This document shows positions 12,746 through 47,100 of a stretch of 64,000 bases of DNA, piece after piece. How positions within the stretch are numbered: the first letter of the stretch is position 1; each line of letters opens with the position of its first letter. Under the pieces are notes generated by a model. The model was not told the origin of the DNA, did no database searches, and worked only from the letters and a program-made list of their open reading frames with translations. The stretch spans positions 29,264,001-29,328,000 of the forward strand of contig OZ024750.1 in assembly GCA_964016885.1 (NCBI GenBank), in the 5' to 3' direction. Position numbers and translations under genes: made by a program. The DNA is from Eledone cirrhosa. Its lineage: Eukaryota.

Positions 12746-14024
12746 TTTCATTCATTCATTCATCATACTTCTACATCCGTTGTTCCACACTTGCATGAGT
12801 TGGACAGGTCCTTCTCAGTATAGCATCTCTCCACTTGTCACACTCTTTTGTTATCTCTTCCATGAGCTTTAGCGATCTGAGATCAGCTCTCAACATTTCC
12901 ATCCAGTTCTGTGTCAACTAACCAGCTCCCTTTTACCCCTCCATCAGTGTCCAGTGGAGTGACCTATTCTCTCTCCGTTGAAAGATAAAAAAAACAATTA
13001 GAAATAACTTGCCTTGCCTATCAAGATACCTGAGGCCCTCTCTATGTCTCGTGAAACCATGGATCTACATACGAGCAAGGTGTTTCTGTGAAAGACCAGC
13101 AGTCACCCACTCATTCCAATTTCCTATATCCATACCAAGAAACAATCAAAGGCCAATGACGTCACAGCTTGGCACCAATGACATCACAAGCAAACTTAGA
13201 CTGCAAAGGGCTATAAGAGATACTGCAAGGGATTACATCAGATGTCCTAATAATTATACTTTAGCAGAAAAGTCTTTTAAATAATATTTTTTGGTTGCGA
13301 GAAGGGATCCTTAAAGAAGATTAGATTATAAGGCTGTGTGTTTAAGTTTCTTCATGAGGAAAGGATCAAATAGGAAAGCACAGCGAGGAAATTATATAAA
13401 AGGTTTATTTTTATCCGTAAATTATTACATGTACTGAAAGAGTAAAAAGCTGGTGGCATGCCGCATGATTAAGTTGAACTAGTTGTTGGGCCCTTGCTGA
13501 TAGGGCCAAAGTTTCTTGGTAAGTTCTACATCTTGCCAGTTGCTCCAGGGAATGCCATTAGTAACCTCTTGTCTCTCCAAAAATGAAGCTGGAACTCTCT
13601 AGAAGTGAAAAGAGGCGCAAATTCGCTTGCTGAGCAGAAGTCACTGCTTGGTATTTCTACGCTGCTGACTTACCAGCCTGGCGACGGACCAAGCACAACC
13701 CAATTGTTCCGCCGCGATAAGTTAGTGCCATTGCTTACTACAACACCAATCCACTGTTTTGAACTGTGACTTTATTTAATAAATCACCATGGAAAGATAA
13801 AAGGTAAAGTTGACCTCAGTGGGGTTTGAACTCAAAATGCAGAGAATTAGAACAAATACTGCCAGGCATTTAATCCGTCATTTTAATGGCGCAACAAAAA
13901 TATTTTTTTAAAACCCATAAAAATGCACAAAATTCTTTGTAGAGAATGAATAACTATATCTTTTATTATTACAATTATAAAACAAATTTAATAACAAAAA
14001 AAAAAACATGGCCACAAATTTATA

Positions 14025-16542
14025 AGGGAGAGTGGGAATATACAATTGAATTGACTATAGGAGTATCTAGGACCCAGTGTTATTGATCCCTCAGGGAGAG
14101 TGGGAATATACAATTGAATTGACTATAGGAGTATCTAGGACCCAGTGTTATTGATCCCTCAGGGAGAGTGGGAATATACAATTGAATTGACTATAGGAGT
14201 ATCTAGGACCCAGTGTTATTGATCCCTCAGGGAGAGTGGGAATATACAATTGAATTGACTATATGTGCATCTAGGACCCAGTGTTATTGATTCCTCAGGG
14301 AGAGTGGGAATATACAATTGAATTGACTATAGGAGTATCTAGGACCCAGTGTTATTGATCCCTCAGGGAGAGTGGGAATATACAATTGAATTGACTATAG
14401 GAGTATCTAGGACCCAGTGTTATTGATTCCTCAGGGAGAGTGGGAATATACAATTGAATTGACTATAGGAGTATCTAGGACCCAGTGTTATTGATCCCTC
14501 AGGGAGAGTGGGAATATACAATTGAATTGACTATAGGAGTATCTAGGACCCAGTGTTATTGATCCCTCAGGGAGAGTGGGAATATACAATTGAATTGACT
14601 ATAGGAGTATCTAGGACCCAGTGTTATTGATCCCTCAGGGAGAGTGGGAATATACAATTGAATTGACTATAGGAGTATCTAGGACCCAGTGTTATTGATC
14701 CCTCAGGGAGAGTGGGAATATACAATTGAATTGACTATATGTGCATCTAGGACCCAGTGTTATTGATCCCTCAGGGAGAGTGGGAATATACAATTGAATT
14801 GACTATAGGAGTATCTAGGACCCAGTGTTATTGATCCCTCAGGGAGAGTGGGAATATACAATTGAATTGACTATATGTGCATCTAGGACCCAGTGTTATT
14901 GATCCCTCAGGGAGAGTGGGAATATACAATTGAATTGACTATAGGAGTATCTAGGACCCAGTGTTATTGATCCCTCAGGGAGAGTGGGAATATACAATTG
15001 AATTGACTATAGGAGTATCTAGGACCGAGTGTTATTGATTCCTCAGGGAGAGTGGGAATATACAATTGAATTGACTATATGTGCATCTAGGACCCAGTGT
15101 TATTGATCCCTCAGGGAGAGTGGGAATATACAATTGAATTGACTATATGTGCATCTAGGACCCAGTGTTATTGATCCCTCAGGGAGAGTGGGAATATACA
15201 ATTGAATTGACTATATGTGCATCTAGGACCCAGTGTTATTGATCCCTCAGGGAGAGTGGGAATATACAATTGAATTGACTATATGTGCATCTAGGACCCA
15301 GTGTTATTGATCCCTCAGGGAGAGTGGGAATATACAATTGAATTGACTATATGTGCATCTAGGACCCAGTGTTATTGATCCCTCAGGGAGAGTGGGAATA
15401 TACAATTGAATTGACTATATGTGCATCTAGGACCCAGTGTTATTGATCCCTCAGGGAGAGTGGGAATATACAATTGAATTGACTATAGGAGTATCTAGGA
15501 CCCAGTGTTATTGATTCCTCAGGGAGAGTGGGAATATACAATTGAATTGACTATAGGAGTATCTAGGACCCAGTGTTATTGATTCCTCAGGGAGAGTGGG
15601 AATATACAATTGAATTGACTATAGGAGTATCTAGGACCCAGTGTTATTGATCCCTCAGGGAGAGTGGGAATATACAATTGAATTGACTATAGGAGTATCT
15701 AGGACCCAGTGTTATTGATCCCTCAGGGAGAGTGGGAATATACAATTGAATTGACTATATGTGCATCTAGGACCCAGTGTTATTGATCCCTCAGGGAGAG
15801 TGGGAATATACAATTGAATTGACTATAGGAGTATCTAGGACCCAGTGTTATTGATTCCTCAGGGAGAGTGGGAATATACAATTGAATTGACTATATGTGC
15901 ATCTAGGACCCAGTGTTATTGATCCCTCAGGGAGAGTGGGAATATACAATTGAATTGACTATAGGAGTATCTAGGACCCAGTGTTATTGATCCCTCAGGG
16001 AGAGTGGGAATATACAATTGAATTGACTATATGTGCATCTAGGACCCAGTGTTATTGATCCCTCAGGGAGAGTGGGAATATACAATTGAATTGACTATAG
16101 GAGTATCTAGGACCCAGTGTTATTGATCCCTCAGGGAGAGTGGGAATATACAATTGAATTGACTATAGGAGTATCTAGGACCCAGTGTTATTGATCCCTC
16201 AGGGAGAGTGGGAATATACAATTGAATTGACTATATGTGCATCTAGGACCCAGTGTTATTGATCCCTCAGGGAGAGTGGGAATATACAATTGAATTGACT
16301 ATAGGAGTATCTAGGACCCAGTGTTATTGATCCCTCAGGGAGATTGGGAATATACAATTGAATTGACTATAGGAGTACCTAGGACCCAGTGTTATTGATT
16401 CCTCAGGGAGAGTGGGAATATACAATTGAATTGACTATAGGAGTATCTAGGACCCAGTGTTATTGATCCCTCAGGGAGATTGGGAATATACAATTGAATT
16501 GACTACAGGAGTATCTAGAACCCAGTGTTATTGATTCCTCAG
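14025..16542. repeat. Minisatellite, 68-bp unit, 37 copies
   Basis: AGGGAGAGTGGGAATATACAATTGAATTGACTATA(GGAGT/TGTGC)ATCTAGGACCCAGTGTTATTGAT(C/T)CCTC. Confidence 0.98.
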
Positions 16543-16627
16543 ACAGAATAAATGGCAAAGTCAGCAAATAGTCAAGTGTTTTGTATTAATAGTAGTAGTA
16601 GTATGAGGAGGAAGGGGAGAAGGACTG

Positions 16628-28246: not shown

Positions 28247-31200
28247 AATGGTGGTGATGATGATGACTTGGCTACATGACTTCACTTAGCACTTAATACT
28301 AACATATTGGCTTCAGTTTGTCCAATATGATAACAGAACCCTCTCCTAATTTAACAGTGGAACAATAAAAAGGAGGTAAAAAGTCGTCAGCATTGAATTG
28401 TAAAAATACAAATGGTTTCAATTGTTGTAATAAATACAGTAAAATCAATTTAACCCTTTAGCATTTACATTACTCTATATTTACTATTTTACTTTCACAG
28501 TAAAGGCTTTACCTTACATAATTATCTCACATAATATAGAATCTATGAGATTTTAATATTATTTATTTTGAGAACAATACCTTAACATAAGTATGAGTGG
28601 CCAGTTACAGCTGGTTTGAACAGAAAGAGGTGAGAGAATTCTGGCCGGATATAGCCAGTTTAAAGCCAAGGGTTAACAGTTGAACAGTAAAAAGCAGGTA
28701 GGACATCACCAACATTCAATTGTAAAAAACACAAATGGATTTAATTGTTGTAAAATATTAAAATCAATCTAATGTAACCCCAAATGTCTGACCTTTTTGT
28801 TAACATATTCTAAATAACGTTTGTATATCTCGTGTTTCCTCAATTGTACTGTTTCAAATGGAATGTTTTTCGTGTTTTCCTGTAATTTATTCATCAGTGG
28901 ATTATAGACTTGATTTGTCCATCGTTTGTATCGATTTTCCTGTTGTTTCTTCTTTTTCATTTCAATAGTCTGGAGTTTTGATTCTAGTTCCTGGTAGCAG
29001 GGAGAAAACAAACTATTGTTTATAGTAGCAGGGAGAAAACAAACTATTGTTTATAGTAGCAGGGAGAAAACAAAATATTGTTAATGGTAGCGGGTAGAAA
29101 ACAAACTATTGTTTATAGTAGCAGGGAGAAAACAAACTATTGTTTATAGTAGCAGGGAGAAAACAAAATATTGTTAATGGTAGCGGGTAGAAAACAAACT
29201 ATTGTTTATAGTAGCAGGGAGAAAACAAACTAATGTTTATAGTAGCAGGGAGAAAACAAACTATTGTTTATAGTAGCAGGGAGAAAACAAAATATTATTT
29301 ATACTCTTGGAGAAGTCACATCTTTTTTTTTTTATAATTAAAACAAAAAACCCAGCATGCAACTTATCTACTGAACCTACAAAAGCTTCTATGTTTGTCA
29401 AGTACTAGGTAAAAAATGCTGCATGTAAGATGGAGGAACAAGTTATCTACCAGTTGTAACTTATCTACCAGATGTCATTTATCTACCAGATGTAACTTAT
29501 TTACCAGATGTAATTTATCTACCAGATGTAATTTATCTACCAGATGTAACATATCTACCAGATGTAATTTATCTACCAGGTGTAACATATCTACTAGATG
29601 TAATTTATCTACCAGATGTAATTTAACTACCAGATGTTACTTATTTACCAGATGCAACTTATCTACCAGATGTAACTTAAACATGAGTATACATAGTGAA
29701 TACAATTAAGTGCGAATGATTTACTACACCTAGTGGTTAGGATGTTGTGGGTTCAATTCCCGGACCAAGTTGTGTGTTGTGTTCTTGAGCAAGACACTTC
29801 ATTTCCTGTTGCTCTCATGTGCTCAGCTGAAAATGAGTACCAGCAATCGCTAGGTTGGGGGGATTAACCCTGCAGCGGATTGATGTCCTGTCCAGGGAAA
29901 CCTGGATAAACACCAGCCAGATGAACCTCTGGTGTTGAGATTCATGTTTACTCTAGTGTACTCAGCTGAAAATAAGTACCAGAAGTGGGTGGGGTGGGGG
30001 TGGGGGTAGAAGATAGGGTTAATCCTGCGATGGACTGGTGTCTTGTTCATGGAGAAGCCTTGTACTTTCAGTCACTTAACACCAAGGAAACTGGGATAAA
30101 TACCAGCCTGATCAGCCTCCAGCTTCAAGACAGATTTTAGACTTTTAGAAGACATCAGTATGGCATAACAAACTAGTGTCAATAACTTTGAGCAGAGATG
30201 ATGTAAATTCTAGGCATTAACTCTTCCATTACCATACTGCTATGAAAAACACAGCCTAGGATTTAAAATTCATTCTGAAAATAATCAAGAATTTGGAGAG
30301 ACTTAGTGATATAAGTGGATTGGCAGTATTGGTAGAGCGTCAGACAACATGCTTTGGGGTATAGAGTTACGGCCCTTTATGTTCTGAGTTCAAATCTCGC
30401 CGAGGTTAGCTTTGCCTTTCATCCTTGCGGGGTCGATAAAATAAAGTACCAGTAACACACTGGGGCCGATTTAAACGACTTCCCCTTCCCCCCAAATTGC
30501 TGGCTTTGTGTCTAAATCAGAAACCATTATTAACTTCTTCTAAACTCCTCCTAGTTATTTTATATACCAGCAGGGGGTACCAACTAGCATTTGGAGCATA
30601 ATGATAACAGGGATGTTGCATAGGAGTTTTTAATTTCAAAAATGGCAACTTAAGAGCAGCAAAAAAAAAAAAATATATATATTTTAACACACACACACAT
30701 ATGTATATATATATGTGTGTGTGTGTGTTAAGTATTTCTGTAGAAAAGCTAAAGGAAAGAAGAGTGCTTTATGTATCATACAGAGCTATTTAATTACATA
30801 ATAAACAGCACAATATAATTATTCCATTACTGAAAATTTCAAGAAACTAGACGATTCTTACAGAAACGTCCAGCCTGTTCATCAGACGAAATAATTATGT
30901 TTTGGATATCCAAAAGATAATTATTTTGTCTGACGAATGAGCTAGATATTTCTGTAAGAATTGCCTAGTTTCTCGAAACCTTCGCTAATGGAATAATTAT
31001 ATTGTATTGTTTATTATGTAAATAAAAAAAAAAAAAAAAAATTAAAAAAATATATATATATATGGAGGCACATGGCTTAGTGATTAGAGCATTGGCCTTG
31101 CAATCGAAAGGTTGTGAGTTCAATTCTTAGACCGGGCGATGTGTTGTTTCCTTGAGCAAGGCACTTTATTTCACATTGCTCCAGTTTACTCAGCTGTAGA

Positions 31201-31656
31201 AATGAGATGATAGGGACTGGGGTCCCTATCATTCCACTGCAAAGTGGTCGTGGAGGCGCCACAGCAAAAAAGCACCCAGCACTCACTGTAAATGAGGTTG
31301 GTGTTAGGAAGGGCATCCAGCTGTAGAAATCAAGCCAGAATCAGTTCCCGTCCCACCCTTGCCAGCAGGGAAAAGTGGACGTAAAATGAAATGATGATGA
31401 TGATGATATATAATATAAGATCAAAAGATGGTTAAAAGAGTTCCAAGTATTTTATTATGCGCATTTCAAAAACAAATATCATCATGGGATGATATCTGCG
31501 TTCTCATCAGATAAAATAGGGAGACATGACATGAAGCTTTCATATCATGTCTCCCTATTTTATCTGATGAGAACGCAGATATCATCCCATGATGATATTT
31601 GTTTTTGAAATGTGCATAATAAAATACTTGGAACTCTTTTAACCATCTTTTGATCT

Positions 31657-31699
<43 letters not shown>

Positions 31700-34600
31700 T
31701 TTTTTATTTTTGTTATCTTTGTTATATTTCAAACATTTACTGTCCAATTTACATTGTGGCAGCCTTCAAACAAAACCCGATTTTTTACATTCTACACAAT
31801 GCTTCAAGCAAACCACAACACCCTCCTACAATGGAATGTTTTTATACAAATATAATCACTCCTAAAGTATTGTAGAACTAGGAAGGGAGTCATGTCAGGC
31901 AATTTCGTATCAAAAGGGTTGAGTTATTTTAACACTTGACATTTCAAACACCACTGTACTGACATTTTACTTCTGCACCTTAACTTATTTGAAAGGATTA
32001 GCTTAGGGTCCTTCCTCTCTTTAATTAGACAGCTCTATTCTATTTTCCCTGTCTTTCAAGTAGGTACTTATTTAATCCTTCATATATCCTCACTACTAAG
32101 ATTAGCATAGATTCTCTCAGTCAAGTGACAGTAAAAGAGAATTAGTTAGTTAGTCATTGTACCATGAGAACTAGATTACTAGCTGGTGGGTCTTCAGTTC
32201 AAAACTACATATTTTGTTATATTTACAGAAATAGGGACACTCAGTCAGAGATCCCTATTTCATCAATAGATACAAACAAGACTGGGTGGTTAAGAAGTTT
32301 GCTTATCAATCAAATAGTTCTGGGTTCATCTCCCTGCATATAACCTTAGGCATGTGTCTTCTAGCCAGGACTGTATTACTTATAAAGCAAACTATACTGA
32401 AACCTAGTATCCCTGTAAGGAATAACGGTCAAGGCAGTATTAGGGGGTTGCTGTAGTGAAGTGAAAAATTGAAGCCTGAAAGCTTACAGGCTCAGCAATG
32501 GGGTAATATGGCCCAGCATCAAGAATAGCCTCAGATCAAACTATGGGGTAATATGACCCGACATCTAGTATAACCTCAGAGCAAACTATGGGGTAATATG
32601 ACCCAACATCTAGTATAACCTCAGAGCAAACTATGAGGTAATATGACCCGACATCTAGTATAACCTCAGATCAAACTATGGGGTAATATGACCCGACATC
32701 TAGTATAACCTCAGAGCAAACTATGAGGTAATATGACCTGACATCTAGTATAACCTCAGGTCAAACTATGGGGTAATATGACCCAACATCTGGTATAACC
32801 TCAAGTCAGACTATGGGGTAATATGACCTGACATCTAGTATAACCTCAGGTCAAACTATGGGGTAATATGACCCAACATCTGGTATAACCTCAAGTCAAA
32901 CTATGGGGTAATATGACCCGACATTTAGTATAACCTCAGGTCAAACTATGGGGTAATATGACCTGACATCTAGTATAACCTCAGGTCAAACTATGGGATA
33001 ATATGACCCAGCATCTGGCATCACCTCAGATCAAACTATGGCCTATTGTTTTGTTTAACCACATCACCAGGTTCTTGGCTGTCTTTAGCAGAGTAGATAT
33101 AAACCATTGCATGGGGTGTCATTAGTAGAGTAAACTTAAATGCCTGCCTGGTTTAACACCATCAACCTGGCTCCACCTGATGCCACTAGGCCATGTGTCA
33201 CCAATTAACCATGCAATACAAGTGATACATATTTTCTCTGATAAGCTGATTGAAGCAAGCAGTTTAAGGTTAGATGAAACATTTTTTTAATATTTAACAA
33301 ATTTTACCCTTTTCATGTCATAATCTCTTCCTACCACAGAATCATATTTCTCCATAACTTGTTTGAACTCTGAATATGACTGAAAGAATGAAAAGAAAAA
33401 CAAGCCAAAGCATTAATAAAAATAAATTGATTAAAAAGTTTAAGTTTTAATATTTGATATAAGGAGGACTTTATATTCCGAATGAGGCTTAGCTTAGACT
33501 GTGTGGTATTCACAAGATGTTCATTATCTGGAGGTTTTGACAATTCAGTCTTACGACTTCACAAGATATTCATTGATCTGGAGGAATCGACGATAAAGTT
33601 TTAGGACTTCACAAGATGCCCATTGATCTGGAGGTCTAGACAATAAAGTTTTAGGACTTCACAAGATGTCCATTGATCTGGAGGTCTTGACACTAGAGAC
33701 TTAGGACTTCAAAAGATGTCCATTGATCTGGAGGGCTACACAATACAAAGTTAAAACTTTACAAGATATGTCAATCTATCTATACCAACTGTCAGGTCAC
33801 CAGATGAATATATCTATGTCAACTGTCAGGTCACCAGATCAATATGTATATGCCAACTGTCAGGTCACCAGATCAATATATATATGTCAACTGTCAGGTC
33901 ACCAGATCAATATATCTATGTCAATTGTCAGGTCACCAGATCAATATATCAGTCAACTGTCAGGTCACCAGATCAATATAGCTGTCAACTGTCAAGTCAC
34001 GAGATCAATATATCTGTCAACTGTTAGGTCACCAGATCAATATATGTCAACTACCAGGTCATGAGATCAATATATCTGTCAACTACCAGGTTCCCAGATC
34101 AATATATCTATGTCAATTGTCAGGTCACCAGATCAATAAATCTATATCAACTGTCAGGTCACCAGATCAATATATCTGTCAACTACCAGGTCACCAGATC
34201 AGTATATCTATGTCAACTACCAGGTTCCCAGATCAATATATCTATGTCAATTGTCAGGTCACCAGATCAATAAATCTATGTCAACTGTCAGGTCACCAGA
34301 TCAATATATCTGTCAACTGTCAGGTCACCAGATCAATATATCTATGTCCAACTGTTGTCAGGCCACCAGAACAACATATTTATGTCAGGTCACCAGAGAT
34401 CATTATATCTGTCAACTACCAGGTCACCAGATCAATATATCTATGTCAACTACCAGGTCACCAGATCAATATATCTATGATGTCTGTTAGGCCACCATAT
34501 CAATATATCTATACTAACTGTCAGGTCACTAGATCAATAAATCTATACCAACTGTCAGATCACCAGATCAATATATCTATGTCATCTGTTAGGTAACCAA

Positions 34601-35183: not shown

Positions 35184-38100
35184 TTTCTTATATAGGCACA
35201 AGGCCAGCAATTTTAAGGAAGGGAAAGTCGATTAAATCGACACCAGTGCATGACTGGTACTTTATTTTATCGACCCCGTGGTGATGAAAGGCAAAGTTAA
35301 CCTCGGCGGGATTTGGACACAGAATGGGAAGGCCCGTAATCTATGCTGCGAAGCATGAGATCTGACCCTCTACCGATACTGCCAATCCACTGCCCCTATA
35401 ATAATAATAAACAAGTTGGTGATCAAGGCAGCAAGAAATAATTAGAAAAATTGAATTTTAACCCTTTATCATTCACATTACTCTATATATACTGAGGCGG
35501 TGGATTGGCAGTATCGGTGGAGGGTCGGACGCCATGCTTTCCAGCATAGTTACGTCCCTTTACGATCTGAGTTCAAATCCTGCCGAGGTTGACTTTACCT
35601 TTCATCCTTACGATAAAATAAAGTACCAGTAATGCACTAGGTAATTGTTGGCCTTGTGCCTAAAGTAGAAACAATTATTTTAGTTCTTTTTTATCTTATA
35701 TTTTGGAAATGTACACACCGTTTTTTTCAATTATTTTGGGGCCCCAAGAAAGTGGGGGCCCTAAGCTATAGCTTGTTTAGCTTATACGTAAATCCCACTC
35801 TGCATCCTCCGGGGAAACGCCTTCTCTATTCTGTCCGCCGAGGCCGTGGAGCGGCCAGCGCGTGGGATCCCATTTGTTCGTAAAAGTGAGATATGGGGAG
35901 GGCGAAAGAGATGGAGGCGATGATAGTGGGAGTTCTGACCTTGTGTATGTGTATGTTTACATCTATTCTTATGTGTAGAAAGCTGCCGAGGTTGACTTTA
36001 CCTTTCATCCTTACGGGGTCGATAAAATAAAGTACCAGTAATGCACTGGATAATTGCTGGCCTTGTGCCTAAAGTAGAAACAATTACTCTATATATACTA
36101 TGAGATTTTAATGGTAAAGGCTTTACCTCGCATAATTATCTCACATAATATCGAATCTATGAGATTTTGAAAGTATTTATTTTGAGAACAATACCGTAAC
36201 ATCAGTTTGTGTGACCAGTTAAAGCCGGTTTCAACAGAAAGAGGTAGAGAATTCTGGCCGGTTTTGGCCGGTTTGAACATTAACCCTTTAATGTTCAAAC
36301 CAGCCAAAACCGCCCAGAATTCTCTACCTCTTTCTGTTGAAACCGGCTTTAACTGGTCACTCAAACTGATGTTAAGGTATTGTTCTCAAAATAAATACTT
36401 TCATAATCTCATAGATTCGATATTATGTGAGATATTATGTGAGGTAAAGCCTTTACCGTGAAAATATAATAGTATATATAGAGTAATATGAATGCTAAAG
36501 GGTTAAAGGGTTAAACTTTTACCTGAAAATGTAAATTGTTTTTTCTTTTCATAAATGGTTCATAGCTGGGATCAATATTTTCCGGTTTTTTAACAAGTGA
36601 GTGACCTCCTCTCTCAGGGTTCACTGTCAACTTCAATGAATAATATAACAAGGCATTGGTTTCTTTATTGGCCACAAGGGCTAACATGAAGAAAAACATT
36701 ACAGACGGCACAGAACAGTACAGGACAATACAAAGTGGATTTTGGCCGTGTAAAAAAGGTTATAACAAGATAGAAATATAAAAAAAAATTCAAACAACAA
36801 AAAATACCCCAATAGGGGACAAACTTCTGAGGGTCACTCGTGGCGAAAACCACACAAAAGACCACGGCCACCCTGACCACCAGGGCAAGCGCCCTCTCTC
36901 AGTTTTCCCACTCTTCAGTCTACAGGCGCATACACAGAGCGGGCTCGTTCACTCGGACCAGACTCGCCATTTTCACCCACCTTTCAACAAACTTACTAGA
37001 AGACAGCACTTGCCTCTCCACCCTGATTTTCCTCTTCAAGTGAAACTTGAAAAAGTTAATCAGGGATTGGCTGAAGAGGAAAGTAATAATAATAATAATA
37101 ATTGTTTCTACTTTTGGCACAAGGCCAGCAATTACCCAGAGTATTACTGGTACTTTATTTTATCGACCCCGTAAGGTTGAAAGGCAAAGTTAATCTCGGC
37201 GGGATTATTTGGCAGTATCGGTAGAGGGTCGGATGCCATGCTTTCCAGCATAGTTACGTCCCTTTACGGTCTGAGTTCAAATCTTGTCGAGGTTAACTTT
37301 GCCTTTCATCCTTACGGGGTCGATAAAATAAAGTACCAGTAATGCACTGGGTAATTGCTGGCCTCGTGCCAAAAGTAGAAACAATTATTTCTACTTTAGG
37401 CACAAGGCCAGTGATTTGAAGGTAAGGGTAAAGTCGATTAAATCAACCCTAGAGTATTACTGTTACTTTATTTTATCGCCCCCCGTAAAGATGAAAGGCA
37501 AAGTTAACCTCGGCAGGATTTCAACATACAATGTAAAGGGCCGTAACTCTATGCTGCAAAGCATGTTGACCGACGTTCTACTGACTCAGCCAATCCAAAT
37601 AATAATTAACATCTTAACCCTTTTGATATCAACCCATTTGAAACTACAACTGATTGATTCTATGATACAAAAACTGTGGAATGCTCAGCCACTTGCATGA
37701 TAATTTCATGAACAGGCTGTTACATTGGTCAAACAACTGGATCTCCATAAAACTGGCCCATAAAACTGGCCCTTCCACAAATTTGTGTATCATCATCATC
37801 ATCATCATCATCATCATTTTACGTCTGCTTTTCCCTGCTTGCAAGGGTGGGACGGGAACTGACTCTGGCTTGATTTCTACAGCTGGATGCCCTTCCTAAC
37901 ACCAACCTCATTTACAGCGAATGCTGGGTGTTTTTTTTTCCGTGGGGCCTACACGACCACTTTACAGTGTGGGCTGGATGCTTTTTTGCCGTGGAATGAT
38001 AGGGACCCCAGTCCTATCATTTCATTTCTACAGCTGAGTAAACTGGAGCAATGTGAAATAAAGTGTCTTGCTCAAGGAAACAACACATCACCTGGTCTGA

Positions 38101-41100: not shown

Positions 41101-44100
41101 CACAATATATGATGTTGGCCAATACAGTTTGGCACCAGTGATGTCACAACTCATTTCTATAGCTGAGTGAACTTAGAGTGATGTGAAAAAATAAAGTGTT
41201 TACTCAAGGATGCAACACATCACTTGGCTGGGAATTGATTTGACAACCACCTCATGATTATGAGCTCCACACTCTAACCACTGAGCTACACACCTTCAAT
41301 ATAAACTGGTAAAGTCACCTAATTTATATTACAATAACTGCACATTCTTTTTTGTCTGTCACATGAACACTATAATCTGTCAAAAACATTATCAAAGAAT
41401 GTCTTGCTAATGTAATTTCATGTGGTATTTCAAGGCCTAAAGCTAGTAGGGAGTTTGTTGATTAAGATCTGACTGTTACATTAAACATAACATCTCTTTT
41501 ACTGGTCTTATAACATACCCTCTCCCTTACTGGTCCTATAACATACCATCTCCCTTACTGGCCCCATAACATACCATCTCCCTTCCTGGTACTATAACAG
41601 AGTAATTTTCATCAGTTTTCATTCTAATCATCATCATTTTTATGCTTGCTTTTCCATGCTTGCATGGGTTGGAAGGGTCCTATTCAGCACATCATCTCTC
41701 CACATGTCACGTTCCTTCTTAACTAAAAATATGTGCCACTAGAGTGATTAGGGTTAGCAAGGCAACCCTCATGTAAAAACTACTGTCTACATTAGCTATA
41801 TTCAAATAGGTAATTTTACATAAGCATGCTTACTTACTTCATTCAAGTTCAGTGATGTAAAAACAAGACAAAACAATAAATTCTCCCTTCCAAATCTGAT
41901 GGTCAAAGACACAAGAAAAGATTTCTTCTTTCCATATCTGATGGTCAAAGACACAAGAAAAGATTTCTCCCTTCCAAATCTGACAGTCAAAGACACAAGA
42001 ATAGATTTCTCCCGTCCAAATCTGATAGTCAAAGACACAAGAAAATATTTCTCCCTTCCAAATCTGACAGTCAAAGACACAAGAAAATATTTCTCCCTTC
42101 CTAATCTGACAGTCAAAGACACAAGAATAGATTTCTCCCTTTCATATCTGATGGTCAAAGACACAAGAAAAGATAAGAAAAGAATGAATTTAAAATATTT
42201 ACCAGGCTATTTTGAGTATTCAATTTTGTCAAACTTTGTTTAGGATTTTGAAGATCATCAATATTTATGGAAAAAGAACTGGCATAAACAGTTTCTGAAG
42301 AATTCTGGTTTTTTAATGAGAAATATAACTGGTCATAACTATGTCACATCATAAATATAACTGGTCATAACTATATATAACTAATCATAACAATGTATCA
42401 TATCATATATAACTGGTCATAACTATATACCATGTCATAAATAACTGGTCATACCTACAGACTGCTTCATAAATAACTCGTCATAACTATAGACCATGTC
42501 TTAAATAACTGGTCATAACTACAGACCACTTCATAAATAACTGGTCATAACTACAGACCACTTCATAAATAACTGGTCACAACTACAGACCACTTCATAA
42601 ATAACTGGTCACAACTACAGACCACTTCATAAATAACTGGTCATAACTACAGACCACTTCATAAATAACTGGTCACAACTACAGACCACTTCATAAATAA
42701 CTGGTCACAACTACAGACCACTTCATAAATAACTGGTCATAACTACAGACCACTTCATAAATAACCGGTCATAACTACAGACCACTTCATAAATAACTGG
42801 TCATAACTACAGACCACTTCATAAATAACCGGTCATAACTACAGACCACTTCATAAATAACTGGTCATAACTACAGACCACTTCATAAATAACCGGTCAT
42901 AACTACAGATCACTTCATAAATAACTGGTCATAACTACAGACCACTTCATAAATAACCGGTCATAACTACAGACCACTTCATAAATAACTGGTCATAACT
43001 ACAGACCACTTCATAAATAACTGGTCACAACTACAGACCACTTCATAAATAACTGGTCATAACTACAGACCACTTCATAAATAACTGGTCACAACTACAG
43101 ACCACTTCATAAATAACTGGTCATAACTATAGACCACTTCATAAATAACTGGTCATAACTACAGACCACTTCATAAATAACCGGTCATAACTACAGACCA
43201 TGTAATAAATAACTCATCATAACTATAGACCATGTAATAAATAGCTGGTCATAACTAGATATCACATCACACACATATTAGAGAGTCAGGGCCTGATGGC
43301 TGAGCTCTTGCTGTTTCAACACCAAACTCTCTAATGTATTTACACTCTATTATCCCAGATATTGAGTACTCTGCTGAATAATGTTCTGGAGCTCAAATTC
43401 TGTCAATACCTCACCACCACCTCAAAGCATTGGATGACTCAAGAAGAAGATTAACCCTTTAGTTACCAACCTGGCTAAAACTAGTTCTGGCTCTATAAAA
43501 TAAAATCACCCATTTGAAAGGTTTCCAATTTAACGAAAATTAAAATCTTCCAACACAATTTTACATAAAGACCTTACATTTAGTTACCAACCTGACTAAA
43601 ACTGGTTCTGGTTCTATGAAATAAAGTCATCCATTTTAAAGGTTTCCAATTTAAATTAAAATCTTCCAGCACAATTTTACATAAGGAATTTACATTAACC
43701 CTTTAGTGTTCAAACCGGCCAGAATTCTCTACCTCGTTCTGCTGAAACTGGCTGTAACAGGTCACTCAAACTGATGTTAAGGTATTGTTCTCAAAATAAA
43801 TACTTTCAAAATCTCAGATTCGATATTATGAGAGATAATTATGTGAGGTAAAGCCTTTACCATGAAAATATAATAGTATATATATAAAATAATTGTTTCT
43901 ACTTTTGGCACAAGGCCAGCAATTACCCAGTGTATTACTGGTACTTTATTTTATCGACCCCGTAAGGATGAAAGGCAAAGTTAACCTCGGTGGGATTTGA
44001 GGTTAACTTTGCCTTTCATCCTTACGGGGTCGATAAAATAAAGTACCAGTAATACACTGGGTAATTGCTGGCCTTGTGCCAAAAGTAGAAACAATTATTT

Positions 44101-47100
44101 TATATATATACTATTATATTTTCATGGTAAAGGCTTTACCTCACATAATTATCTCTCATAATATCGAATCTGAGATTTTGAAAGTATTTATTTTGAGAAC
44201 AATACCTTAACATCAGTTTGAGTGACCTGTTACAGCCAGTTTGAACAGAAAGAGGTAGAGAATTCTGGCCGGTTTTGGCCGGTTTGAACACTAAAGGGTT
44301 AATGTAAGTTCCTTATGTAAAATTGTGTTCGAAGATTTTAATTTAAATTGGAAACCTTTAAAATGGATGACTTTATTTCATAGAACCGGAACCAGTTTTA
44401 TGAATGCTAAAGGGTTAAGTTATCATCTTAGTGATGAAATGATTAATAATTTTAGTAAATCCCTCGAAATTCTTCATTAATCAATTGAAACAAAGCGCTT
44501 TTCATTAGAAATGTGGTTATGAAAGGGTTAAGGTGGTGATCAAAGCTGCAAGAAAGAATTAGAAAAAAAAGAAAATGTAATTTTTACCTGAGAATTTATC
44601 TTCTGAATTCCATAATCTGTGGTACTTAGGTTGGAATTTAGGGGTGTTTTTGAAAAGGAGCTGACAGTATCACATTCACTTGCAGGCTTTGCGGGCTGTG
44701 GTGACTTTAATGAGAAATATTAATTATAACAGTATACCATTTTATAAATAACTGGTCATGACTTTATTTCACACACACACACATTATATATATATGTGCG
44801 TGTGTGTCTCTGTGTGTGTGTCTGTGTGTGTGTCTATGCTAGTGTGGAAGATGGACGTTAAACGATGATGATGATGATGATACATTATATACACAGACAT
44901 TACACACATGTTATATAGACAGACAGAGGGAGATAGATAACTTTCTATTGATTTGCCACCAGGGCATCAAAGATTGGGACAAATACAAGGGAGGGGGGGG
45001 GGGAGTTTACATACATTTCAAATGACGTGTAAAAACATATAACAAATCAAATTCAACAATCAAAGTCCTCAATAGGGAAGGGGTGTTGACGTGGGTTGCA
45101 CACACCCCCGAAAAAAATGTGCAACCCTCCTCCTCAGGAGCACAAAGAGTGGGTGCTCCCTTCTTCTCCTCTCTCACCTACAGGCTGATATAGTGAGAAG
45201 GCCCATTCACTTGGGCCATTCTCGCCACTTTCACCCACCTTTCATAAAACTTGCTGGGGTAGAGCACCTCTCTCCCCATTCTGATCCTTCTTCTAAAATG
45301 GTACTTGAAAAAAAGGACCAGTTGTTGGCCAGAGAGAAAAGTGTATGACCTCAGCCCTTTCAACCTCATCCACCATACAACCTCTTTCGCTATAGCTATC
45401 ACACAGAGGAAAACCGCCTCTCCTTCGTTTTTAAAGGGGGGAGGCGGTTTGATTGTGACAATGTACTCGGTGGTCAACCGGATTGGTCCCACCCGCGACA
45501 GTAGTTGTTCCACATAGCCCCACAAGTCAGCAACGCCCGGGCAGTGTATGAATGCGTGCACGACGGTTTCCTCGTCACGCATGCATCTTGGACAGATCTT
45601 CTTCATGGGGTCCCTAACCGGGCGCCCGTGTCTGTAGAGCTTGTCCCGAATGGGTAGAGCTCCTCGGTAACATTGCCAAGCCAGGGACTTTTGGAAGTTG
45701 TCCATCGGTCCCGGCCAAACGTCCTACCGAACAGACTGGCTAGCTTGTCTTTCTCCATGCCCAGAGCCTCTCCGAGAGCGTTGTCGCACTTGCTGCGCAC
45801 CAACCCTCTATAGAATGTTGAGGTTGAGTCTCCACTGATTGAGGGATCCGCTTGCCAGAGGACCGTGAGCACCTGGGCACATTCAATGTGCCAGTCACCC
45901 ATTTTTCTCGGTCTTTGCTTGACCCAGGATTGCAGCTCGGTGAGTGAGACAAGTCTCGGAAAGGCTCGCCTCACAAAAGGGGCCCACACCGGCTGACCAG
46001 TGAGGAATACTTGGAGGTGCCGTAGCCTTAATGCGTGTCTACGCATCATCAGCCACGGCATCCCCAGCCCTCCGTTCGAAGGGTGTTGACAGCAGATGGA
46101 TCTTCTCACCCTCGAGCAGGTGTTGCTGCTGTGCATTGCAGCAATCCAGCCCCTGAAAACAGGTCCGAAGCCTGCCGCCGCGAGCACCGCATCCAGGTAT
46201 CGATGGTCAACCCTATCGAACGCCTTATATTGATCCAAGTTGATCAGGGCCCCACCAAAGCTGGGTTCGTTCCCTACCCTCTCTACGATGTATCGCATGA
46301 GGTGGAGGTTGTCGTGTATGGACCTGGACGGGATTGCGCATGTCTAAGCTTCTCCCACCAGGTTCCCGACGACAAGCGCCAACCTCTTCGCTAACACCTT
46401 GGCCAAAATCTTTAACTCTGTGTTTAGCAGAGTTATGAGCCTGAAGTTATCTATGTCATCCCCCTTGTTCTCGTCCTTCCTCACCAACGTGACTACGCCC
46501 TTGGTCACAGAACTGGGACTGGGAATTCTCCCGTTCTGTTGCCAGCTGCAGTAGACCGCCTCGGGGAGATCGGAGAACAAGTTCGGCATCGCTACATAAA
46601 GTTCGTATGGTAGACCATCGAGACCGGGAGATTTGCGTTTGCCACATTGGCTCAGCACTTCCCCTATTTCAGTGGCTGAAATCGGTCTTTCGCAGGACTT
46701 CGCCTCCCCGTCCGAGAGCCGCGGCAGACCGTCGTGTTATGGACCAAAATCCATGGCCTCACCCGGCCCGCCACCCCTCCCGAACAGTTGTGCAAAGCGC
46801 CGTTGAAAGGCCGCGCACATCCGCTCAGGTTCAAGGATCACGCGTCCATCCTGGTCCTTCAAAGACCGAATCGTGGACTTGTTTCCACTTTTTGCCTCTG
46901 TCACTCAGGCCCAGCTAACAGCTTTGGCTCCCTCGTTACCCAGAACACATATTTTACTCCTGACAACGCAGCCCTCGTGCTTCACGTCAAAGAACCGGTC
47001 TAGGGCCATTCTTGACGCCAGCACGCCGGCCACGTTGCCACTCCTAATCGCCTCTTCTACTCTATCTATCAATTCCCTTTCAGTTCTACTCCTATCTGAT

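Follow-up and report, generated by a model that had tools for sequence, protein, structure and literature searches.

Two head-to-head hammerhead 3' ends of a Penelope-like retrotransposon form an intronic palindrome in Eledone cirrhosa, probably by a single insertion

We analyzed a stretch of 64,000 nucleotides from Eledone cirrhosa (contig OZ024750.1, positions 29,264,001 to 29,328,000; hereafter the window), in which a first-pass annotation had recorded a 263-bp palindrome with two arm mismatches. The sequence confirmed this description. The palindrome spans 31406-31668, with arms of 130 nt around a 3-nt centre (31536-31538) and mismatches at 31461/31613 and 31530/31544. The element proper extends from ~31411 to ~31663, and the outermost 5 bp on each side belong to the TA target (Table 1). 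The palindrome had also been described as set in (TA)n, which is correct for the right side, but on the left its immediate neighbour is a tRNA-type SINE that ends in (GAT)n. This SINE is a separate element with a weak tRNA match at 31073-31130 (E 0.51) in an Rfam search, and a (TA)n remnant lies beyond it at 31050-31063. Two further long near-perfect palindromes are present in the window, at 43597-44400 (277-nt arms, 99%) and 36137-36434 (147-nt arms, 97%). Both belong to a different repeat family, have sequence in common, contain SINE pieces, and gave no match to the type I hammerhead descriptor. In addition, a tandem array at 13882-16600 contains ~37-40 copies of a 68-bp unit with 95-100% identity.

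The palindrome had been placed in an intron of a FAM228-like gene, and our analysis supported this position. In an exhaustive protein search, homologue P0002 mapped to collinear minus-strand exons, and the intron concerned starts with GT and ends with AG. The upstream exon (~33308-33369) was weak by itself (E 1.4), and one run X4 contig aligned only to 28792-28991, in the exon region. The Atlas supplied the name FAM228 (0.94, with 206 features in common; its recognition value of 1688 did not reach the mark of 2300). A Pfam scan of six candidate exons detected no FAM228 family and a word-index protein search likewise yielded nothing useful, and we treat the FAM228-like identity of the host gene as a lead. 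Because the palindrome is intronic, the pre-mRNA would contain a 130-bp hairpin, and the previously suggested potential for long double-stranded RNA is supported.

Table 1. Positions of the palindrome, its parts and its surroundings within the window
Feature	Position	Strand	Description and basis
Left arm	31411..31539	-	Inverted 5'-truncated 3' pseudo-LTR, -83 to ~+46 from the cleavage nucleotide; junction mapping
Right arm	31539..31663	+	5'-truncated copy, pseudo-LTR as in the left arm, -79 to ~+46; junction mapping
Head-to-head junction	31534..31540	.	Self-complementary hexamer AAGCTT plus one T; arms overlap by 1 nt; sequence
(TA)n target microsatellite, right flank	31664..31689	.	Sequence
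tRNA-type SINE ending in (GAT)n	31064..31405	+	Separate element, abuts the palindrome on the left; repeated within the window
Type I hammerhead motif	31556..31626	+	H17 at 31618; stem III 8-mer with minority U at 31613
Type I hammerhead motif	31448..31518	-	H17 at 31456; stem III 8-mer AUGCGCAU
Host intron of FAM228-like gene	28991..33307	-	Between exons ~33308-33369 and 28794-28990
P0002-matched exons (about)	33364-33308, 28993-28793, 24875-24780, 21939-21712, 17569-17486	-	

A type I hammerhead descriptor was applied to both strands of the whole 64 kb and matched only the two palindrome arms, in agreement with the earlier claim of a complete fold on each strand with an 8-bp stem I and a UA cleavage site. 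In the plus arm, stem I (8 bp) pairs 31556-63 with 31619-26, the core comprises CUGAUGA (31564-70), GAA and the UA cleavage site, stem II pairs 31571-86 with 31591-606, and a self-complementary 8-mer occupies 31610-17. Stem II, previously given as 16 bp, has 15 pairs (three of them G-U) and one C/U mismatch over its 16 positions. The stem III 8-mer of the minus motif was found in 85 of 105 family arms, and the U of the plus motif in 7 of the 105. The minus-strand motif is the sense copy in the host pre-mRNA. The 86-nt arm motif folded better than its shuffles (z = -3.0 and -3.3), and the full 130-nt arms folded no better than theirs (z about -0.6). Searching positions 29000-34000 against Rfam, a check proposed in the first-pass annotation, returned 34 matches at E<=10, with no hammerhead family among them; they included hairpin-shaped miRNA models, all below their own thresholds. 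The descriptor and the variation within the family are thus the grounds for calling the motif.

The hammerhead stem pairs were retained in 149-160 of ~160 family arms. All nine frequent stem variants preserve pairing, three of them at G-U pairs, where any transition would do so. Addition of a second hammerhead family, described below, brought the number of pairs that change on both sides to five, all from that single sequence. The conserved core, stems I and II and the palindromic stem III support the proposed assignment to the minimal Penelope-like type I hammerheads with a dimer-type stem III. At the base of stem II, a G-C pair (G10.1-C11.1) is highly conserved according to PMC4209133, where a related minimal motif had no activity as a monomer and low activity as a dimer. 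By contrast, none of 158 arms of this family carried G-C at this position, 115 having G-U and 41 A-U, and the second hammerhead family likewise has G-U. The G-U pair noted earlier is indeed present in both arms of the palindrome, but it is a family trait and not decay of this copy.

Judged from their sequence, both arms derive from an abundant Penelope-like retrotransposon, of which they represent the 3' end (pseudo-LTR). A 26-nt motif pattern had 3,350 exact matches in the genome and 0 in the control; this number is a lower bound, as the pattern misses the subfamily with intact frames. When the 3.0-Gb genome, in which the window lies on contig C10, was searched at the DNA level, 675 candidates were obtained and 40 of them were scored. 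The question had been raised whether copies are always palindromic; among 30 fetched loci, most held a single arm running upstream into shared sequence. In L013, L015, L029 and L032, the arm is preceded by a 3' UTR of ~1.2 kb and this in turn by GIY-YIG-type and RT frames; three of the fetched loci reached through the 3' UTR into endonuclease and RT frames. From 150 scored matches of a protein search, 10 loci were chosen for their long frames, and eight of them had frames of 819-821 codons followed by the arm at 88-89% identity. The first-pass annotation had asked whether any copies adjoin Penelope RT/GIY-YIG ORFs, and such copies were thus found. Its proposal that the palindrome is itself an ORF-less, strand-symmetric mobile element is not supported; the arm represents the 3' terminus of a more extensive RT/endonuclease element. 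A layout of pseudo-LTR, tail, ORF and pseudo-LTR was observed in L088 and L089. The pseudo-LTRs are direct in L088, L089 and L090 and inverted in L087 and L031. The left arm of the palindrome is 98.5% identical to a natural family copy, L076; the right arm is 97.8% identical to L076 and 88% to the pseudo-LTRs of the intact-ORF copy L088. In L032 and L094, the copies examined among those most similar to the window (94-99% over the arm), the frames were broken or shortened.

The frames contain QFD, DDG and YFGST motifs, and 26-50% of the members among Atlas look-alikes of the protein carry GIY-YIG, with related domains also occurring in part of the members. Pfam gave no RT or GIY-YIG match on the element frames, and a PDB sequence search gave nothing relevant. 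On the basis of the motifs, the Atlas look-alikes and by-eye comparison with Hydra sequences, we assign the parent protein as an RT with a C-terminal GIY-YIG-type endonuclease. The family has the features of an endonuclease-bearing (EN+) Penelope-like element: a single ORF with these two parts upstream of the arm, and direct or inverted pseudo-LTRs with a type I hammerhead. L087-L092, L095 and L096 belong to a subfamily in which many intact 800-aa frames are nearly identical, which points to recent activity of this subfamily. On the minus strand of L032, Penelope-like RT/endonuclease frames of other families adjoin the element in one 9.5-kb stretch.

The Hydra clade has been defined among C-terminal EN+ Penelope-like elements, with Hydra-1_Obim as its member for Octopus bimaculoides, and (TA)n targeting has been reported for it (PMC8557442). 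The parent protein has RLRW at 35, DKT at 123, CNCRIKNKC at 659, YFGST at 693 without the cysteine pair, CNLC at 759 and CLH at 787. These correspond to the N-terminal RWK-type motif, the change of DKG to DKT, the CxCX5C linker, the absence of CCHH, and the CxxC and CxH close to the C-terminus of the clade, with the first motif reading RWT or RWI instead of RWK. The flanks of the present locus and of fetched family loci likewise showed insertion into (TA)n. From this motif match and a by-eye comparison with the published alignment, whose Hydra sequences the protein resembles, the parent element is, as far as its sequence tells, a Hydra-type Penelope. It shares with the clade a single ORF with RT followed by a C-terminal endonuclease, a canonical hammerhead and (TA)n targets. 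Hydra-1_Obim belongs to a different family: its protein is clearly divergent by eye, its hammerhead sequence differs, and it is annotated as 'no pLTR', whereas pseudo-LTRs are evident in the parent element. The parent unit is ~3.7 kb with a long 3' UTR, versus less than 3 kb in the clade. The family would extend the Hydra clade by clear pseudo-LTRs, intact frames and a hammerhead without the usual G-C base pair.

To describe the ends of family copies, positions were counted from the hammerhead cleavage nucleotide (= 0). Two fixed 3' ends were found, one at +46 (short) and one at +133, after an 87-nt tail (long); 221 segments comprised 121 short, 95 long and 5 between. The surroundings of all 100 listed motif matches (contig C1, 1.6-104.4 Mb) were fetched, and pair ends were assigned by motif typing; the samples are one chromosome stretch and the top matches, selected by the motif pattern. 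On C1, 36 of 39 head-to-head pairs were long/short, two were short/short and one was long/long (p 1.8e-8 versus 50%), a count in which L086 stands as short/short although it is a long/short pair whose tail contains a SINE, and in which one further pair has an uncertain end. Similarly, 16 of 20 pairs in other loci, and 13/15 and 5/5 in two further sets, were long/short. The tail-bearing end of EN+ Penelope-like elements is therefore usual in the family, as the 36 pairs show, but absent from the present copy, both arms of which have the short-type end without a tail. Displacement of a tail by the neighbouring SINE was considered and rejected; tail sequence is absent throughout the 64-kb window, which holds only two Penelope-family matches of note, the palindrome arms themselves.

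The 5' ends are also clustered: 46 of 106 ends in the region -240 to -61 fell at -125 to -121, a further cluster at -199 being ignored as probably an alignment break in a pyrimidine tract. The hotspot at -123 lies within an initiator-like motif. Genome-wide, hotspot junctions numbered 1,763 exact matches, 968 with 0-12-nt centres and 795 centred on CATATG. A hand count of 50 listed 0-12-nt junctions gave 19 different centres, the commonest recurring 17 and 11 times, and inserted bases were present at 22 of 40 junctions. The pattern for the centre type of this copy matched 0 sites in the genome; near its junction position, five sites were found with four different centres, none equal to its own. 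The centre patterns were exact and miss diverged copies, and neither of them matches the window, which has a substitution or the extra T of its own. The present palindrome thus belongs to a very common class of products but is a rare form of it, short/short and more truncated (-83/-79). Two insertions in L078 (2322-2576 and 3871-4117) lie 1.5 kb apart with an identical, unusual junction (+53/-123), and probably represent a local duplication.

The relationship between partner arms was then assessed. In 34 pairs, the arms differed at 18 of 235 polymorphic cells, compared with 97.5 expected from a random pool, and two templates drawn from a random RNA pool were rejected on this count. Of 40 long/short pairs, 29 had a long arm whose start lay downstream of that of the short arm, and 13 had arms that did not overlap. 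Each arm of the 29 pairs thus holds sequence that the other lacks, which, with the non-overlapping pairs, indicates that neither arm was copied from the other. Ten CATATG-centred palindromes, taken from 15 loci after exclusion of five with stubs or complex centres, showed 20 differences and 0 recurrent arm-specific changes. Their distance was 1.2% within a copy and 5.9-6.7% between copies; this 10-copy test points toward each arm being closest to its own partner, and away from left arms grouping with left and right arms with right. Fold-backs of 20 nt at CATATG, observed in L160, L161 and L167, show that snap-back also occurs.

We asked how the ribozyme would behave in this arrangement, as the RNA had been thought to fold either as a hammerhead or as a hairpin. 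The predicted energy was -207.5 kcal/mol for the full hairpin versus -13.9 kcal/mol for the hammerhead fold, and the predicted probability of the hammerhead stems was 0 in the 263-mer versus ~0.8 for stem I in the arm alone. Moreover, transcription from either strand yields the antisense arm first. Since the hairpin outweighs the hammerhead and the antisense arm precedes it, the ribozyme in this palindrome is predicted to be silent and non-cleaving, and the supposed choice between two folds is not supported. In the parent element, the hammerhead would, according to the literature, act only as a dimer or with the help of protein. No excess of 5' ends was found within -3 to +4 of the cleavage site (3/55, p 0.48) as a genomic trace of cleavage, suggesting that templates usually traverse the site uncut. 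A footprint of ADAR editing in the copies was not supported (A>G 16/2,792 versus T>C 36/4,022 on the sense strand, p 0.16).

These observations lead us to conclude, with good confidence, that the palindrome consists of two head-to-head, 5'-truncated Penelope hammerhead 3' ends, likely from one insertion into (TA)n, and is predicted to be immobile and non-cleaving. The long/short pairing and the sharing of alleles suggest that one RNA is primed twice, once per target strand. As the underlying mechanism, double priming from two nicks on one element RNA appears the probable one. Its fuller form, to which we give somewhat better than an even chance, is that one RNA starting 123 nt upstream of the hammerhead is primed from both (TA)n strands at two fixed sites and that the cDNAs are joined head to head. 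The element protein would nick the two strands of the (TA)n target, and reverse transcription of a single shared RNA would be primed from each nick, in the usual case at +133 from one and at +46 from the other. Both cDNAs would extend toward the RNA 5' end, the likely start site of which, at -123/-124, is read from cDNA ends only, and would be joined through short homology or a few added bases. The present copy would be a rare variant with both arms beginning at +46 and ending prematurely at AAGCTT. ORF, tail and presumed start site are all missing from it, and its short/short type is not predicted by the long/short model (1-2/39); a single cDNA that snapped back, or a central deletion at a later time, would account for this one copy just as well. 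The shared alleles could also reflect arm-to-arm conversion, or periods in which a single source locus prevailed.

Alternatively, the inverted arm could have arisen when one cDNA, or an antisense RNA, primed itself (snap-back), as proposed for rotifer Penelopes; this is possible but distinctly less likely, and would not alter what the feature is. Allele sharing would follow from it directly, and the short/short, nearly symmetric form of this copy with its 3-nt loop, the 795 junctions centred on a palindrome and the fold-back stubs all accord with it; junction palindromes have been read in this way (PMC3846280). However, it does not explain the sequence unique to each arm in 29 of the 40 long/short pairs, the 13 non-overlapping pairs or the bases inserted at 22 junctions. 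Taken together, the long/short rule, the shared alleles, the non-overlapping arms and the 5'-end hotspot would favour double priming on one RNA over self-priming, as far as sequence patterns can tell. Later loss of the centre of an ordinary, longer palindrome (arms to -123) by deletion between two copies of AAGCTT seems improbable. Long perfect palindromes are prone to deletion, the self-complementary AAGCTT forms a direct repeat on both arms and the junction lies on it; yet a clean event would leave no extra T, the five junctions nearby have four different centres, as expected of fresh joins, and the missing tail would be unexplained.

The first-pass annotation had favoured a hammerhead element that is non-autonomous and strand-symmetric and that moves as a palindromic unit through transcription, cleavage and reinsertion, a view we now regard as very improbable. 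The ~1,760 near-uniform palindromes with the -123 junction, the centres recurring 17 and 11 times among the 50 listed, and the similar palindromes made by the second hammerhead family would suit such an element. However, dispersed copies of the same palindromic unit, expected of a self-propagating (MITE-like) element, were not found (0 and 5 pattern matches): no site repeats this centre, and centres vary. Furthermore, no arm-specific change recurs across the 10 copies, no folded hammerhead is predicted for a read-through transcript, the cleavage site shows no enrichment of 5' ends, and no tandem array of the non-LTR retrozyme kind was seen. An assembly fold-back artefact is barely credible. 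It would suit the lack of any contig or read across the palindrome, but two sites distinguish the arms, the flanking sequences show no mirror symmetry, each arm terminates at the end used throughout the family, and >1,700 sites have this design. The palindrome is thus likely a dead-end by-product of one insertion and not a new self-copying element.

As a feature, the palindrome is ordinary: its architecture, that of a truncated and inverted Penelope insertion, has been published. Canonical Penelope-like units, as described in PMC3846280, PMC8557442 and PMC4209133, share with it an inverted, 5'-truncated copy at the 5' end in head-to-head orientation, and dual hammerheads on opposite strands, 100-700 bp apart, have already been described (PMC4209133). 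The family also shares a tail that is usually on a single end and junction palindromes (PMC3846280, PMC8557442). It differs from these accounts in the length of the tail, 87 nt versus 30-40 (PMC3846280, PMC8557442), and in a sharp 5'-end hotspot used by both arms, and the present copy differs in being tailless at both ends. Non-LTR retrozymes (bioRxiv 10.64898/2026.07.22.740005) resemble this copy in having a type I hammerhead, no ORF and a Penelope-like origin. In contrast, they are head-to-tail tandem units with a hammerhead in each, whereas this copy is a single head-to-head pair, and no head-to-tail tandem units of this kind were found in the window.

Purified Penelope protein was reported to cut and extend both strands, with two RT start sites that bound the tail (PMC11167929). 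In that system, PAc (Poseidon from Anolis carolinensis), the hammerhead needs protein and is dispensable in vitro. Like the present family, PAc has two tail-bounding start sites, an AT-rich target, extension of both strands and templates that run through an uncleaved hammerhead (PMC11167929). PAc belongs to a different clade, and its start sites lie inside the ORF (PMC11167929); in this family, by contrast, both lie upstream of the ORF, whose start codon probably follows the tail by ~65 nt. The twin-priming reading would fit this result. The formation of tandem and inverted ends of Penelope-like elements is named as unresolved in PMC8557442, and our literature search, outside which most subscription journals lay, found no paper stating the model of double priming on one RNA for these elements. 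If true, twin priming would tie the two start sites seen in vitro to the rule of a tail on one end, and well over a thousand hairpin-forming inserts of 400 bp would have been seeded through the genome. The family supplies many perfect hairpins, intronic or intergenic, which could feed RNA editing or small-RNA pathways.

A second hammerhead family was observed in the same genome (L094:2450-2535; L145-L156). It comprises 830 candidates that are very uniform, many of them 100% identical, and has the same core, stems I and III, short and long ends and 5' hotspot as the first. It forms head-to-head pairs ~183 bp apart, and no ORF was found in 12 fetched loci. In L051, L054, L081 and L086, a tRNA-type SINE of ~180 nt lies at the AT-rich +46 site of the element, and it was also found upstream in L155; this suggests either a target preference shared by SINE and element, or use of the Penelope machinery by the SINE. 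Finally, the tail, read on its antisense strand, contains a consensus 5' splice donor near +115 to +133 (e.g., L009 and L030), which could affect host splicing where long arms sit in introns.
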